64,000 nucleotides of DNA from Bacteroidota bacterium (lineage in GTDB: Bacteria > Bacteroidota > Bacteroidia > AKYH767-A > 2013-40CM-41-45), in contig JAYVUK010000032.1 of the NCBI GenBank assembly GCA_043787975.1, forward strand, positions 2,577 through 66,576, written 5' to 3'. Within the stretch, counting starts at the first letter, position 1. Each line of letters starts with the position of its first letter. This document shows, piece by piece, positions 9,783 to 15,815 of this stretch. The notes below the pieces were generated by a model. The model had not been told where the DNA came from and searched no databases. It saw nothing but the letters and a program-made list of their open reading frames with translations. Both the position numbers and the translations under genes were made by a program.

Positions 9783-10595
9783 CTAGTCTTTTTCTAGTAG
9801 GTTCTGATATCGTCTTAAAGTTTCGGCATCTGAAATCTTTCTACCTGATTGGTAAAAAACAATTTCTCCGTTTCCCGGCGGTTGGTTTTTCAGGTCATCC
9901 TTTTCAAGAATATTTTTTACATGATTCACGGTTCCTGAATTTCCATCGATGATTTCAGTTCCTTCCGGAAACATTTTTTTTAGAATGGTTTTATAAAAAG
10001 GAAAATGTGTACAGCCCAGCACAACGGTTCCGTAATCTTCAGGATGAATAGTTGAAAAACTCTTCGATAAAACAGGGATAATTTTTTCTTCGTCAAAAAT
10101 AAATTGTTCCGCCAATGTCACGAGTTCGGGCAAGGGAAGCATGTCAACAATTTTTTCATTGTCAACCTTGTCGACCAATTCTTTAAACTTTTGTTCTTTC
10201 AACGTGAGTTGAGTAGCAAGCACCAGTACACGTTTGTTTTTGGAATTTGATACAGCCGGTTTTACAGCCGGCTCCATACCGACAATCGGGAAATCGTATA
10301 GGTTGCGCAATTCGCCTATAGCAATGCTCGTGGCGGTGTTGCAGGCAACCACGAGCATCTTCACTTGCTTGCCGGATAAAAATTTTGCGGCTTCGAGAAC
10401 GAAATTTTTTACTTCCTCTTTGGTTTTAGTTCCATACGGTACATGATCCGTATCTGCATAATAAATATAGTTTTCAAACGGCAAAAATTTTAATGCTTCT
10501 CTCAATACACTTAATCCGCCAATACCGGAATCAAAAATGGCGATCGGATCGGACGAATTGTAATTGGTTTTTGAGATGGCTGACATGCGATTCAA
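9783..10595 (-). CDS. murI: glutamate racemase
   Basis: IAIFDSGIGGLSV, VVACNTAT and GCTHFP motifs. Confidence 0.9.
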   Translation of the reverse strand: MNRMSAISKTNYNSSDPIAIFDSGIGGLSVLREALKFLPFENYIYYADTDHVPYGTKTKEEVKNFVLEAAKFLSGKQVKMLVVACNTATSIAIGELRNLYDFPIVGMEPAVKPAVSNSKNKRVLVLATQLTLKEQKFKELVDKVDNEKIVDMLPLPELVTLAEQFIFDEEKIIPVLSKSFSTIHPEDYGTVVLGCTHFPFYKTILKKMFPEGTEIIDGNSGTVNHVKNILEKDDLKNQPPGNGEIVFYQSGRKISDAETLRRYQNLLEKD

Positions 10596-10656
10596 AAATA
10601 AAAAGGATTGAATATCAGTTTAGAATGGATTCGGGACAAATACAATTTTTAAAATA

Positions 10657-10699
10657 GCCGCAGATTATTATTTCTAAAAAAAATCTGCGAATCTGCGGC
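10657..10699. terminator. hairpin gccgcagatt...aatctgcggc downstream of alpha/beta hydrolase gene (minus strand)
   Basis: Seen directly: 10-bp stem in an AT-rich flank. Confidence 0.4.
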
Positions 10700-10738
10700 A
10701 TATATTTTCCAACTAAAATCTTAAACACAGTCTGAGTC

Positions 10739-11494
10739 TTAAATTTTTTTCAGCCACTTTTCGAGTACATCATTAAACTCGTGAGGTTGTTCCATCATCG
10801 GCGCATGTCCGCATTTGTCAATCCAGAAAAGATCGCTTTTAGGAAGCAAGCGATGAAATTCTTCGGCAACATCGGGCGGAGTAACGGTGTCTTGTTTTCC
10901 CCAGATCAGGCATACAGGAAGTTGCATGTTTTTTAAATCTTCACTCATGTTGTGACGAATCGCAGATTTTGCCAGTGAAAGAATGCGAATCAGTTTTCCT
11001 TTGTCGTTGACGATTCCGAAGCATTCATCCACCAGTTCTTTGGTCGCTGTCTTCGGATCGTAAAACGTGATTTCCACTTTTTGTTTGATGAAATCGTAAT
11101 CTTCCCGTCGTGGAAATGAGCCACCCATGGCATTTTCATACAACCCTGAACTGCCTGTGAGCACCATGGCTTTCACTTTTTCCGGATGATCTTTTACGTA
11201 CACCAAAGCAACGTGTCCGCCCAATGAATTGCCAATGAGAATGATTTCAGAAAAGTTTTTGTATGTAATGAAGTCACTGACAAATTTTGCCAATGCTTTC
11301 ACATTGGTGTTTAAAATCGGCAAGGTGTAAATCGGCATCAGCGGAATTACCACACGGTAGTTTTTTGAAAACCGCTCTACGACATCCACCCAATTACTCA
11401 GCGCACCAAATAAACCGTGCAGCAGCAACAGGACAGGTCCGTTTCCTTCTTCAATAAACTGAAAATTGTCTTCGTGCTTTACCTGGTAGTGCAT
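10739..11494 (-). CDS. alpha/beta fold hydrolase
   Basis: HGxxG oxyanion motif, a GNSLGG nucleophile elbow and a C-terminal His. Confidence 0.85.
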   Translation of the reverse strand: MHYQVKHEDNFQFIEEGNGPVLLLLHGLFGALSNWVDVVERFSKNYRVVIPLMPIYTLPILNTNVKALAKFVSDFITYKNFSEIILIGNSLGGHVALVYVKDHPEKVKAMVLTGSSGLYENAMGGSFPRREDYDFIKQKVEITFYDPKTATKELVDECFGIVNDKGKLIRILSLAKSAIRHNMSEDLKNMQLPVCLIWGKQDTVTPPDVAEEFHRLLPKSDLFWIDKCGHAPMMEQPHEFNDVLEKWLKKI

Positions 11495-11819
11495 AAAAAA
11501 CTTTTCTCAAATATACATGATTCCAATTTGAATAAACAAAAACAATCATGTGTATTCTTTCTGTCCATTTTTTAAAGTAAGAGATTCAGAAAAAACATAC
11601 GTGATTCCATTTCTATTTCAAAAACAAAAAATCACGGATGTTCTTTCAGGCCTTAAAAAATCATAAAAGAGTCTGGAAAAATATACATGATTCCATTTTG
11701 AATTAGCAAAACGTAATCACCCTTCACTTTTTTTCTACTACTCTTTTGTAAAACAATTTAAGGAAGCTCTGAAAAATTATTCCCGGTGAAATCGTGCTGA
11801 AAAAAAGTTTTCAACAAAA

Positions 11820-11844
11820 GTGGTAAAAAGTGGTAGGAAGTGGT
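11820..11844 (+). promoter_or_regulatory. MraZ operator: three GTGGT direct repeats at exact 10-bp periodicity (11820, 11830, 11840)
   Basis: Seen directly: GTGGTaaaaaGTGGTaggaaGTGGTag, about 40 bp upstream of the mraZ start. In E. coli the MraZ site is three GTGGG/GTGTG repeats with 5-nt spacers. Confidence 0.7.
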
Positions 11845-11886
11845 AGAAATTGTTTTACATTAGCGGCTGCAAAAAAAACCTCGATC

Positions 11887-12351
11887 GTGGCTTTTATCGG
11901 TGAGTTCCCAAGTACAGTTGATTCAAAAGGTCGCTTCCTTCTTCCGGCAGGTTTGAAAAAGCAAATTCCGGCAAAAGAGCAGTCGATGTTTGTTGTGCAT
12001 CGTGGTATCGAAAAGCACCTGGTGGTTTACACGAAAAAGGAATGGGAAAAAAACAGCGAAGGAGTGAACAGCCTCAACTTATTCGTGGAAGAAAACCGTG
12101 AGTTCATCCGGCAATATCATCGCGGAGCAACCGTGATGGAGTTAGACAACACGAATCGTTTACTGGTGCCACAGCAATTGCTGGATTACGCAGGAATTGA
12201 TAAAGACATTGTGTTGTACACGTATGCAAATCGCATTGAAGTATGGTCGCAAAAGGAATTTGATAAGATGTTTAAGAGCGACAAAATCAATTATTCGAAA
12301 CTGGCTGAAAAGGTGATGGGCAAGAAAAAGGATAAGGACGATGTATCATGA
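11887..12351 (+). CDS. mraZ: transcriptional regulator MraZ
   Basis: Duplicated MraZ domains with DxKGR motifs. A GTG start at 11887 is preferred over the ORF-track start at 11830, which would begin inside the operator repeats. Confidence 0.85.
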   Translation: MAFIGEFPSTVDSKGRFLLPAGLKKQIPAKEQSMFVVHRGIEKHLVVYTKKEWEKNSEGVNSLNLFVEENREFIRQYHRGATVMELDNTNRLLVPQQLLDYAGIDKDIVLYTYANRIEVWSQKEFDKMFKSDKINYSKLAEKVMGKKKDKDDVS

Positions 12352-13240
12352 ACCGGTTCTTCTCCATGAAAGCATTGAAGGACTCAACCTTTCAGCAGGA
12401 GGAATTTATGTGGATGCAACATTCGGTGGAGGAGGACATTCAAAAGAGTTATTGAAACAAGTAGGAACAAACGGAAAATTATTTGCATTCGACCAGGATG
12501 CAGATGCAACGAAAAACACAATCACTGACAAGCGCTTCATGCTGATCGGACACAACTTCAGGTTCATTAAAAGATTTTTAAAATACTACGATACGATGCC
12601 TGTTAATGGGTTGATCGCTGATCTTGGAATTTCATCTCACCAGATCAATGTTCCTGAACGAGGCTTCTCCATTCGTTTTGACGCGGAATTGGATATGCGT
12701 ATGAGTAAAGAGACAGAACTGACTGCAGCAGGAATCATCAATGAATACAGTGAGGAACGACTTGTTCAATTGTTTTCCGACTACGGTGAGGTAAGAAATG
12801 CACGCACGCTGGCTAAGAAAATTGTTGAAGCAAGAAAGCAGAAACAAATTAAAACAATCAATGAATTCAAGTCGGCCGTTGAAAGTTGTGCTGATCGCGG
12901 AGCAGAGAATCAATACTTCGCACGGGTATTCCAGGCTTTGCGCATTGAGGTGAATGATGAATTAGGAGCATTGAAAGAATTGTTGATGCAATGTCCTGAC
13001 GTGATTGAAAAAGGCGGGAGACTGGTTGTGATTTCGTATCACTCGCTGGAGGACCGGTTGGTAAAGAATTTTATCGCGAAAGGAAAATTTGAAGGCGAAG
13101 TGGAAAAGGACCTGTATGGAAATTCTGCAGGAGTTCCTTTTAAGCCGGTAAACAAAAAACCGATTCTTCCTTCAGAAGAAGAACTGAAACAAAACCCGAG
13201 AGCACGAAGTGCAAAGTTGAGAATTGCTGAACGCATCTGA
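12341..13240 (+). CDS. rsmH: 16S rRNA (cytosine1402-N4)-methyltransferase
   Basis: RsmH/MraW family. Motifs: DATFGGGGHS and GLIADLGISSHQ. Confidence 0.92.
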   Translation: MYHEPVLLHESIEGLNLSAGGIYVDATFGGGGHSKELLKQVGTNGKLFAFDQDADATKNTITDKRFMLIGHNFRFIKRFLKYYDTMPVNGLIADLGISSHQINVPERGFSIRFDAELDMRMSKETELTAAGIINEYSEERLVQLFSDYGEVRNARTLAKKIVEARKQKQIKTINEFKSAVESCADRGAENQYFARVFQALRIEVNDELGALKELLMQCPDVIEKGGRLVVISYHSLEDRLVKNFIAKGKFEGEVEKDLYGNSAGVPFKPVNKKPILPSEEELKQNPRARSAKLRIAERI

Positions 13241-13242
13241 TC

Positions 13243-13647
13243 ATGGCTGAGAATAAAATCAGGGAACAGGAACCCGAACAACAGGAAGAAGAACCGGTAA
13301 AGAAAAAACGTCCATCGAAACAGGCAAGAAATTTTATCCGCTTCATGGGAATCTTCGGTGTATTTGACCGCAACCAGATTGTGCATGCGATGCCGTTCAT
13401 TCTTTTCATCACCACGCTGGTCATGTTTTACATCGGTAACAGTTACAACTCAGAAAGTACGATTCGCAAGATTGATAAAATCAAAATTGAACTGAATGAA
13501 AAACGGGCTGAATATATTTCTACCGAATCGGATGTGATGTTCAAAAGCAAGCCGTCTGAAGTTGCAAAGGCGGTGGAACCGATGCAAATCAAAGAACCAC
13601 TCGAACCGCCAAAGAGAATTATCGTTCGACAGGAAAGAAAGAAATAA
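13243..13647 (+). CDS. ftsL: cell division protein FtsL-like (small bitopic membrane protein)
   Basis: Lies between rsmH and ftsI. It has a single transmembrane segment and a coiled-coil region. Confidence 0.6.
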   Translation: MAENKIREQEPEQQEEEPVKKKRPSKQARNFIRFMGIFGVFDRNQIVHAMPFILFITTLVMFYIGNSYNSESTIRKIDKIKIELNEKRAEYISTESDVMFKSKPSEVAKAVEPMQIKEPLEPPKRIIVRQERKK

Positions 13648-13712: not shown

Positions 13713-15815
13713 ATGGAAGTAAAGAAAGATATGATGTGGAGGATTTATACCGTCTTCCTCTTTATCTGCCTTTTCGGGATTGCAATCGTTGTTCAGATTT
13801 TCAGAATTCAGTTTGTGCAGGGAGATTACTGGAAAGAAAAAGCCGACAGTTTGACGACTGCTTATAAAACCATTGAAGCTTCTCGAGGAAATATTTTTTC
13901 GGATGACGGAAGCATGCTTGCTACTTCGGTTCCGATTTATGATGTGAGAATGGATCTGATGGCAGACGGTTTAACGAACGATCTGTTTGATGAAAGCATT
14001 GATTCACTTGCATTTTGTCTCGCTAATTTATTTAACGACCGTTCGAAATTAGAATACAAGCGCGATCTGCGTGAAGCGCGTTCAGGCGGTGACCGCTATC
14101 ATCTCATTCAACGTAACGTTCATTTTCCTGAATTACAAAAACTCAAAAAGTTTCCGCTCTTCCGTCTTGGCAGATACACAGGAGGAATGCTGGTCGAGCG
14201 TAGGAACGTGCGGGAACTTCCATTTAAAATTCTTGCAGCACGTACCATTGGTTATGAACGTGAAGTAAAACCGGTTGGTATAGAAGCTTCATTCAACAAA
14301 CAACTTCAGGGAGTCAGTGGACAGCGACTCATGCAAAAGATTTCGGGTGGTATCTGGATTCCTATCAATGATAAAGATGAAATAGAACCGAAGGATGGCA
14401 ACGATCTCGTCACAACGATTGATGTAAACATCCAGGATGTTGCCGAACATGCGCTCGAAGAACATTTGCGCAAACACAATGCTGATCACGGTTGTGCCGT
14501 ACTCATGGAAGTGGCAACCGGAGAAATAAAAGCAATCGCCAATCTTTCCAGGACAGCGGATGGAAATTATAGTGAAGATTTTAATTATGTGATAGCAGAA
14601 GCAACGGAGCCCGGTTCCACCATGAAGATGGCATCGCTGCTTGCCGCCATGGATGACGGCTTGGTGGATCCGACGGATTCTGTTTTTGTCGGCAACGGCC
14701 AGTACTACAATTTCACGTTGCTGATGAAAGATGCGCATCCTCCGAAAAGAAGTCGGCTTTCAATTGCAGAAGCATTTGAAGCTTCTTCGAATGTGGGAAT
14801 ATCAAAAGCGATTTATCAAGCCTACAATAAACATCAACAGGATTTTATTGATCACCTCAAAAAATTCAGTCTCGATGATCCGCTTCACTTGCAAATTGCA
14901 GGAGAAGGAGAGCCGCGTATCAAGGATGTAAAAGACAAAGACTGGTGGGCCGGTTCATTGCCTCAGATATCAATCGGGTATGAAGTCAGATTGACTCCTC
15001 TTCAGATACTCACTTTTTACAATGCGATTGCAAACAACGGAAGAATGGTGAGACCGAAGTTTGTTCGTGAGGAACAATACCACGGCAAAACAATCAGAAC
15101 ATTTCCAACGGAAATTATCAAAGATTCGATCGCATCTCTGACGGCCATCGCAAAAGCAAAAAAGCTTTTGGAAGGTGTAGTGGAAAAGGGGACGGCTTCT
15201 TCGCTGAATAAATCGTGTTACAAAATTGCAGGTAAAACCGGAACAGCACAAATGTTCGCCAACAAATACGGTTACGACAAAGGCCATATGACATACCAGG
15301 CATCGTTCGTTGGATATTTTCCTGCTGATCGTCCAAAATACTCATGCATGGTTGTCGTATATGCACCTTCTAACGATGTGTACTACGGAGGAGCGGTGTC
15401 AGCTCCCGTGTTCAAAGAAATTGCGGACAAGGTGTATTCCAATCAAATGGAAATGCACGATACACTTCCAACCAACGATTCACTTGTGAAGAGTTTGCCG
15501 CTTGCAAAAGCAGGTTCACAGAAGGAATTGAAAAAAGTATTCGCGCAGTTGAATGTCGCTACAAGTTCTTCAAACACGGATGCAGAGTGGGTTTCAAGTG
15601 CGTTCATGAATAACTCAATTCAGTTTTCAGAACGAAAAGTAAAATCAGGCCTTGTTCCGAATGTCGCCGGAATGGGAGCAAAAGATGCGTTGAGTATTCT
15701 CGAAAATGCAGGACTTCGTGTAAAGATAATTGGAAAGGGAGTTGTGTCGCGTCAATCCATTGAAGCAGGAACGCGTATTCAGAAAGGGCAGCAAATAATT
15801 ATTGAGTTAAGTTAA
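13713..15815 (+). CDS. ftsI: peptidoglycan D,D-transpeptidase FtsI (PBP3)
   Basis: PBP dimerisation and transpeptidase domains with STMK, SSN and KTGT motifs. Confidence 0.92.
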   Translation: MEVKKDMMWRIYTVFLFICLFGIAIVVQIFRIQFVQGDYWKEKADSLTTAYKTIEASRGNIFSDDGSMLATSVPIYDVRMDLMADGLTNDLFDESIDSLAFCLANLFNDRSKLEYKRDLREARSGGDRYHLIQRNVHFPELQKLKKFPLFRLGRYTGGMLVERRNVRELPFKILAARTIGYEREVKPVGIEASFNKQLQGVSGQRLMQKISGGIWIPINDKDEIEPKDGNDLVTTIDVNIQDVAEHALEEHLRKHNADHGCAVLMEVATGEIKAIANLSRTADGNYSEDFNYVIAEATEPGSTMKMASLLAAMDDGLVDPTDSVFVGNGQYYNFTLLMKDAHPPKRSRLSIAEAFEASSNVGISKAIYQAYNKHQQDFIDHLKKFSLDDPLHLQIAGEGEPRIKDVKDKDWWAGSLPQISIGYEVRLTPLQILTFYNAIANNGRMVRPKFVREEQYHGKTIRTFPTEIIKDSIASLTAIAKAKKLLEGVVEKGTASSLNKSCYKIAGKTGTAQMFANKYGYDKGHMTYQASFVGYFPADRPKYSCMVVVYAPSNDVYYGGAVSAPVFKEIADKVYSNQMEMHDTLPTNDSLVKSLPLAKAGSQKELKKVFAQLNVATSSSNTDAEWVSSAFMNNSIQFSERKVKSGLVPNVAGMGAKDALSILENAGLRVKIIGKGVVSRQSIEAGTRIQKGQQIIIELS

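Follow-up and report, generated by a model that had tools for sequence, protein, structure and literature searches.

The 392-bp gap at positions 11495-11886 of the window (the whole 64-kb stretch of DNA that was analyzed) separates two divergent genes, an alpha/beta-fold hydrolase gene on the minus strand (10739..11494) and mraZ on the plus strand (11887..12351). The hydrolase gene, an open reading frame of 251 aa, has a match to Pfam Abhydrolase_1 (7.9e-22), and its protein has no NCBIfam equivalog at or above the cut-off. mraZ, which has a GTG start and is supported by ORF, domain, and equivalog evidence, is followed on the plus strand by rsmH (12341-13240), an ftsL-like gene (13243-13647), and a PBP gene (13713-15815). 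The gap holds three MraZ-type boxes on the mraZ side and an array of tandem repeats on the hydrolase side; the genes near the array are the hydrolase gene, a murI-like gene, a hexapeptide transferase gene, and mraZ.

The encoded MraZ passes the equivalog cut-off of TIGR00242 (104.3 vs 98.35 bits), and its two DXXXR motifs, DSKGR and DNTNR, align with residues K13, R15, and R86 of Mycoplasma genitalium MraZ, which contact DNA in cryo-EM structures (PMC12957436; bioRxiv 10.1101/2022.02.09.479790). Its best homologues share 81-92% identity, and each originates from a MAG or metagenome of uncultured Bacteroidota/Flavobacteriales. Because the in-frame GTG at 11887 aligns with the ATG start of the relatives (MAGFIGEF in the relatives, MAFIGEF here), mraZ is taken to start at 11887 rather than 11830. 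The automatic ORF call begins the gene at a GTG at 11830, inside the operator, giving 173 aa (11830-12351), and the same over-extended start is present in the database entries P0001 (173 aa) and P0015 (172 aa).

Fifteen related loci from uncultured Bacteroidota were gathered through protein look-ups and one exact-pattern scan; the scan, run with the MraZ operator, yielded 10 loci, and an MraZ-based search of genome contigs returned no related loci. Twelve relatives entered a region-wide conservation profile. The divergent arrangement of the hydrolase gene and mraZ is kept in the relatives. The flank beyond the hydrolase gene is a variable spot among them: it holds a ParE toxin/antitoxin pair in L004 (1191-1686) and an ORF6N-domain gene in L007 (1177-1674) and L013 (1338-1793), in each case ahead of an EngB-like GTPase gene, which lies directly beyond the hydrolase gene in L010 and L015. 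In this window, the spot is occupied by a glutamate-racemase-like gene (9783-10595).

The MraZ operator and its predicted promoter context

Three GTGGTA boxes lie on the plus strand at 11820..11845, with GTGGT at 11820-11824, 11830-11834, and 11840-11844, and the last box ends 42 bp before the GTG start. Their exact 10-bp spacing upstream of a GTG-start mraZ, which the original prediction had pointed out, was confirmed, and the array is unique in the 64 kb: the 26-nt pattern GTGGTANNNAGTGGTANNNAGTGGTA has this single match, where shuffles expect 0.00, and no GTGG-N6-GTGG was found beyond the operator within the window. In most bacteria, MraZ-binding repeats consist of three GTG(G/T)-type boxes with 6-nt spacers directly upstream of mraZ (PMC12957436), and repression in Bacillus subtilis requires three GTGG[A/T]G boxes that are 4 nt apart (bioRxiv 10.1101/2022.02.09.479790). 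In this array, the three direct GTG(G/T) boxes are separated by 6-nt spacers and stand directly upstream of the mraZ gene that heads the dcw cluster. The earlier assignment to the MraZ operator architecture is likewise upheld as a prediction, since the layout fits the published three-box form with a 10-bp period and is essentially invariant in the 15 related loci.

Conservation extends beyond the boxes. A block consisting of AAAGTTTTCAAC, the three boxes, 12 nt, and TACATTAGC is essentially invariant across the 15 related loci, the distance from box 3 to TACATTAGC is identical in 16 loci, and the 74-bp island at 11804-11877 is the only intergenic part conserved in 12/12 relatives. The motif AAAGTTTTCAAC (11804..11815, plus strand) forms the upstream edge of this island and is invariant or nearly so in 16 loci, with the variants TTTTTTAAC / GTTTTTAAC in L004/L023. 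It lies 12-13 nt from box 1 and thus outside the 10-bp register; it could be an UP-like element, a degenerate fourth box, or the site of another factor. In the closest relative, L001 (350-372), boxes 1 and 2 are spaced 9 bp rather than 10 bp, one A having been lost (GTGGTAAAAGTGG); the 10-bp spacing is unchanged between boxes 2 and 3.

The sigma-A promoters of Bacteroidota have the consensus -33 TTTG / -7 TAnnTTTG (PMC7366714, PMC2483708), with the -7 box spanning -12 to -5 (PMC9723704) and the -33 TTTG not being essential (PMC2483708). TAnnTTTG was found 4-42 nt upstream of 11 of the 50 ORFs in the window (including those starting at 2050, 3256, 6274, 9186, 27672, 28759, and 46929), and leaders in the window are A-rich and lack a Shine-Dalgarno sequence, which together confirm a Bacteroidota-type expression system. 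With the ORFs of the window and the relatives pooled (141 in total), the 60 nt before the ORFs show an 8.7-fold enrichment of TAnnTTTG, compared with just 1.4-fold for TAnnTTTT; the weight given here to the final G of the box rests on this enrichment count. Across the window as a whole, TAnnTTTG is rarer than composition predicts, with 45 occurrences observed vs ~60 expected on both strands.

The sequence TACATTAG (11856..11863, plus strand) is the putative sigma-A -7 box of mraZ. It is a non-consensus box (5/6) located downstream of the MraZ boxes, exactly 12 nt past box 3, and no other plus-strand sequence in the entire intergenic region matches TAnnTTTG at 5/6 or better. The G of TACATTAG stands 23 nt before the start codon, compared with 4-42 nt for other genes in the window, and the box is invariant, at the same 12-nt distance from box 3, in all 16 loci. 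Every lineage has A for T at position 7, so that the suboptimal base is itself conserved. Two features count against this assignment, namely that TACATTAG is off consensus and that a -33 TTTG is absent, its position being occupied by the invariant second box GTGGTAGG. Based on the position of TACATTAG, the mraZ transcription start site (TSS) would lie at ~11868, leaving an A-rich 5' UTR of ~19 nt (11868..11886), and the MraZ boxes would extend from ~-48 to -23, over the -33 region. A-rich leaders without a Shine-Dalgarno sequence are described as typical of Bacteroidota (PMC6847099). The name "mraZ leader", under which the original prediction had placed the entire gap, is therefore a misnomer, given that the leader proper is probably only ~19 nt and that the repeats adjoin the divergent hydrolase gene.

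As judged from its sequence, the operator is a canonical member of the known class set in a Bacteroidota promoter context. Like the MraZ-binding repeats of Escherichia coli, B. subtilis, and Mycoplasma, it comprises three direct boxes with a 10-bp period before mraZ as the first dcw gene; it is also the sole such array in the sequence examined, and the cognate MraZ carries both DXXXR motifs. Unlike the known cases, its box flanks are lineage-specific (AAGTGGTA), its promoter is of the Bacteroidota -7/-33 type rather than the -10/-35 type, and the extra invariant motif AAAGTTTTCAAC precedes the boxes. The placement of the boxes, apparently over the -33 region and before the -7 box, also differs from that in M. 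genitalium, in which box 1 contains the TSS (PMC12957436). MraZ bound to the boxes of this module (11804-11877) would occlude RNA polymerase and thereby autorepress mraZ and the dcw operon, as proposed by analogy with E. coli, B. subtilis, and Mycoplasma. The locus thus offers a clean Bacteroidota example of an MraZ operator, suggests where the boxes are placed relative to the promoter of this phylum (over the -33 region and upstream of the invariant TACATTAG), and adds the flanking motif AAAGTTTTCAAC to the operator picture.

The tandem repeat array and the predicted hydrolase promoter

Three tandem units of ~85 bp start at 11494, 11578, and 11664 (spacing of 84 and 86 bp), adjoining the hydrolase gene and lying 110-360 bp upstream of the mraZ island. 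The direct repeats of the original prediction are real and far above shuffles, with a best off-diagonal self-match of 31 at offset 86 vs 12.2 ± 1.8 and a maximum of 23 in 200 dinucleotide shuffles; however, the unit is a tandem module of ~85 bp, not ~45 bp, and each is an imperfect palindrome of ~65 bp (CTGAAAAAAyATACrTGATT, 24 nt, AATCAyGkATrTTCTTTCAG). Exact matches to an 18-nt degenerate core occur at 11511, 11595, and 11681, and homology among the units runs from the leader-equivalent flank through the -7 region to the -33 region.

Unit 1 (11494..11577, minus strand, subtype A), with arms at 11510-11522/11544-11556 and a covariance-model score of 70.3 bits, holds the predicted hydrolase promoter. 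Unit 2 (11578..11663, minus strand, subtype B) is the best palindrome, with arms at 11589-11606/11630-11647 that are 89% complementary and 17 of 20 Watson-Crick pairs, and it carries the -7-like box TATGTTTT (11599->11592) with a TTTG 19 nt upstream. This unit had been taken for a degenerate third copy at ~11595, but it represents a distinct conserved subtype rather than a decayed copy, and its orthologues L001_u1 and L016_u2 show 76% identity. Unit 3 (11664..11750, minus strand, subtype A-like) carries the -7-like box TATATTTT (11685->11678); it is 80% identical to unit 1 over 50 nt (11662-11711 vs 11492-11541), its right arm is decayed, with 9 of 20 Watson-Crick pairs, and it scores 46.3 bits. 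A possible fourth, strongly decayed copy (11757..11800, minus strand; CTCTGAAAAATTATTCC), recognized by eye and weak, contains the 5/6 box TAATTTTT (11779->11772); it was missed by the covariance model and is conserved in the closest relative L001 only. A duplication of the hydrolase start codon in unit 3 (CATAAAAGAG vs CATAAAAAAC) was also considered, but the corresponding L001 sequence, AATCAAAATCG, does not support it and the resemblance may be due to chance.

The left arm of unit 1, read on the minus strand, is TATATTTG (11508..11515), a perfect sigma-A -7 box and the only 6/6 match in the intergenic region, with its G located 13 nt before the hydrolase ATG. A perfect TAnnTTTG with its G 13-15 nt from this ATG recurs in 15/15 lineages with data, even in distant ones where the remainder of the unit is missing, and TATATTTG is predicted to be the conserved core promoter of the hydrolase gene. 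The TSS would accordingly be expected at ~11503, with a leader of ~9 nt. A candidate -33 TTTG lies at 11537..11540 (minus strand), 21 nt upstream of the -7 box; a TTTG also precedes the -7-like boxes of units 2 and 3, by 19 and 21 nt, respectively, although this is a short motif in AT-rich DNA. The perfect -7 box near the start codon makes unit 1 similar to the Bacteroidota sigma-A (sigma-ABfr) promoters, as would the candidate TTTG 21 nt upstream. Unlike the usual promoters of this type, the module is present three times in tandem, has T at the last box position in its distal copies, and is embedded in an imperfect palindrome. Units 2 and 3 contain the hydrolase -7 box with G replaced by T, all boxes point leftward, and no unit of the window contains a plus-strand -7 match of at least 5/6. 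Duplicated promoters, one of the earlier suggestions, were consequently right in kind but were assigned to the wrong gene and strand, as the boxes lie on the minus strand and face the divergent hydrolase gene. A search for sigma-70 promoters also gave three minus-strand hits coinciding with the units, but these were set aside in view of the Bacteroidota promoter type of this organism.

In total, 16 units from nine genomes align well and form the two subtypes A and B. The best match of each unit is a unit of the same subtype in another genome, indicating that a two-unit array is older than the divergence of these lineages. The order of units, counted from the hydrolase gene, is A-B-A' in this window, B-A-A' in L001, A-B in L004 and L016, and A followed by a divergent second unit in L023; L007 and L015 have only a B unit, L010 and L013 have one decayed unit, and a more distant group has the -7 box only and no unit. 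Copy number varies from 1 to 3 (possibly 4) where units are present and is 0 in the more distant group, and unequal recombination within a tandem array gives rise to just such variation in order and number. In the alignment of relatives' loci that had been suggested as a check, the operator island recurred in 12/12 relatives, but the upstream units were conserved in only 4-9/12, with varying copy number, and the spacer between the two is unconserved. The only invariant columns across the 16 units are specified positions of the -7 box, with a minus-strand match of 5-6/6 in every unit vs at most 4/6, rarely 5/6, on the plus strand. The last base of the box is G in 9/9 proximal units and T in 7/7 distal units. 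In the distal units, conservation reaches 0.91 in the -7 box and 0.82 in the inner left arm (GGAATCA), compared with 0.94 and 0.84 in the proximal units and with 0.59 in the loop and 0.64-0.67 in the right arm of the distal units, values in which the apparent conservation of the core is inflated because the units were recognized through it.

Origin and possible roles of the repeat units

The somewhat favored explanation is that a tandemly duplicated hydrolase promoter module stands beside a canonical MraZ operator. By the same modest margin of confidence, the 11495-11886 region is probably a divergent promoter region that combines two mutually independent control modules and not an unusual mraZ leader. 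The hydrolase module (11494-~11750) would be a tandem array of three ~85-bp copies, and its origin by duplication of the hydrolase promoter module is likely. The proximal unit would serve as the working sigma-A promoter (TTTG, 21 nt, TATATTTG, and a TSS ~9 nt before the ATG), and the distal units would be ancient tandem copies in which the -7 core and the adjacent 10 upstream nt (GGAATCAyGTATrTTT) have been retained. Because T replaces the favored G at -5, the distal units could at most serve the hydrolase gene as weak secondary promoters facing leftward or as binding sites for polymerase. Whether they still fire or bind polymerase is a close call on sequence grounds, with the chances slightly against it. 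A copy number ranging from 1 to 3 between relatives indicates that the distal copies are dispensable, and they may be promoter-dead, since all 7 have the TAnnTTTT form that is barely enriched upstream of genes. A simple promoter model, moreover, leaves the palindromic symmetry of the units unexplained, which counts against the duplicated-promoter reading.

Multiple promoters and operators that arose by local duplication are familiar from classical tandem P1/P2 promoters and from the auxiliary operators of lac and gal. The array resembles these systems in having several promoter-like modules on the same strand, helically phased and upstream of one gene, but differs in that its distal modules are putative and have no known bound regulator. 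The array would represent a small case of promoter-module duplication and turnover by unequal recombination.

Alternatively, the distal units could be functionless relics, a slowly decaying neutral minisatellite that arose at the hydrolase promoter through slippage or unequal crossing-over. This is rather unlikely. In its favor, the variable copy number and the orders A-B-A', B-A-A', A-B, and B are as unequal recombination predicts, decay is evident in unit 3 and in the putative fourth copy, and the G of the -7 box has been lost in all distal units. However, the subtype B orthologue has been kept at 62-76% identity in six lineages while the adjacent spacer has fully turned over, and decay of the distal units is uneven, sparing the positions that matter in the proximal promoter.

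The palindromic units might instead be operators of a symmetric (dimeric or tetrameric) regulator, with the proximal one over the hydrolase promoter and the distal ones acting as auxiliary sites through cooperativity or looping. The inverted repeat is indeed register-specific, with 63% of cells paired across the 16 units vs 36-41% when slid by +/-1 to 3; the column pairs 16/61 (CG:4, UA:4) and 21/56 (AU:4, GC:3) change together between the subtypes; the unit period of 80-86 bp corresponds to ~8 helical turns; the wobble-type mismatches show no RNA-strand preference (30 vs 27), which suits a palindrome at the DNA level; and the distal units have been retained despite a suboptimal -7 box. Nevertheless, an operator role of this kind is unlikely. 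Equal half-sites, as expected of a symmetric operator, were not observed, with conservation of 0.82-0.91 in the left arm vs 0.64-0.67 in the right arm and 0.59 in the loop, and arms of 20 nt set 24 nt apart do not resemble known dimer sites. In many relatives, there is just one unit or the right arm has decayed, and no regulator gene was found among the genes neighboring the array. A regulon search with TGATT-N19-27-AATCA returned, beyond the three units, only chance matches in coding regions of the 64-kb window, and the covariance model and pattern searches found no further copies in the window or ~120 kb of the relatives, the model recovering its own training sequences alone. A search of viral contigs with a 22-base core likewise gave no match. 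A more elaborate version, in which the A and B modules are helically phased sites of a symmetric factor that couples hydrolase and mraZ/dcw expression through the shared divergent region, is highly improbable; if true, these uncultured Bacteroidota would control dcw at a second level that is specific to their lineage.

The absence of further copies from the window, ~120 kb of the relatives, and the viral contigs argues against both a regulon and a REP- or MITE-type element. REP/BIME- and MITE-type repeats are short palindromic repeats that are dispersed through genomes. The units resemble them in being short imperfect palindromes clustered in an intergenic region, but every copy found in the window and ~120 kb of the relatives belongs to this one locus, all copies are direct repeats of one another, the locus is a 5' divergent region and not a 3' one, and the sequence carries no signature of the REP type. 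Candidates for known elements, including a Fur box, DnaA box, dif, attC, an invertible promoter, and REP, were rejected on sequence or geometry, given the 20-nt arms 24 nt apart, the single locus, and the uniformly direct orientation.

It has also to be considered that the units encode minus-strand hairpin RNAs, either as tandem small RNAs, each ending at the hairpin and U-run of the next unit, or as 5'-UTR hairpins that modulate hydrolase translation and require transcription to start in the distal units. On the minus strand, unit 2 has a fold of -21.7 kcal/mol (z = -4.4) with UUUUUUC directly after it, unit 1 reaches z = -3.8 on the plus strand, and minus-strand RNA would form a G-U pair at column pair 13/64, where an A/C mismatch is conserved. 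Over the 16 units, however, the mean fold z is only -1.06 on the plus strand and -1.16 on the minus strand, with 3-4 units below -2 and several near 0. Covariation is weak: pairing is 63.0 vs 60.4 in column shuffles, and changes on both sides affect 21 cells vs 13.5 ± 2.9 in shuffles (7 of 500 reach this value) and track a single A/B subtype split, with no overall strand bias. An Rfam search of 10500-13000 (E <= 10) gave chance-level hits only, the best at 21 bits against a gathering score of 88, and a terminator scan found no terminator-like site. In single-unit lineages, the hairpin would not even be part of the transcript. A functional RNA hairpin thus appears weakly supported, and this reading is very improbable.

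Equally doubtful is the proposal of the original prediction that the repeats are upstream promoters or sites of an additional regulator of the mraZ/dcw operon: although they share one intergenic region with the mraZ operator and their right arms carry a weak mirror-image box (e.g., TATATTCT or TATTCTTT), the units contain neither a GTGG box nor, in the window, a plus-strand -7 match of at least 5/6, are separated from the mraZ island by an unconserved spacer, occur in 0-3 copies among lineages next to an invariant island, and conserve precisely the parts that belong to a leftward promoter. No evidence for added dcw regulation emerged, and the array on balance probably lies outside dcw control. 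For annotation, it should not be called an mraZ leader element, and it opens no new question of dcw regulation. The spacer that separates the array from the mraZ island can for the most part not be aligned between lineages. In L004, it is GC-richer (2650-2900) and contains a TTCCGG(N)G motif at least five times; one similar element, TTCCCGGTGAAAT, is present in this window at 11780-11792, and the spacer of L010 contains a short TTCTAAA tandem.
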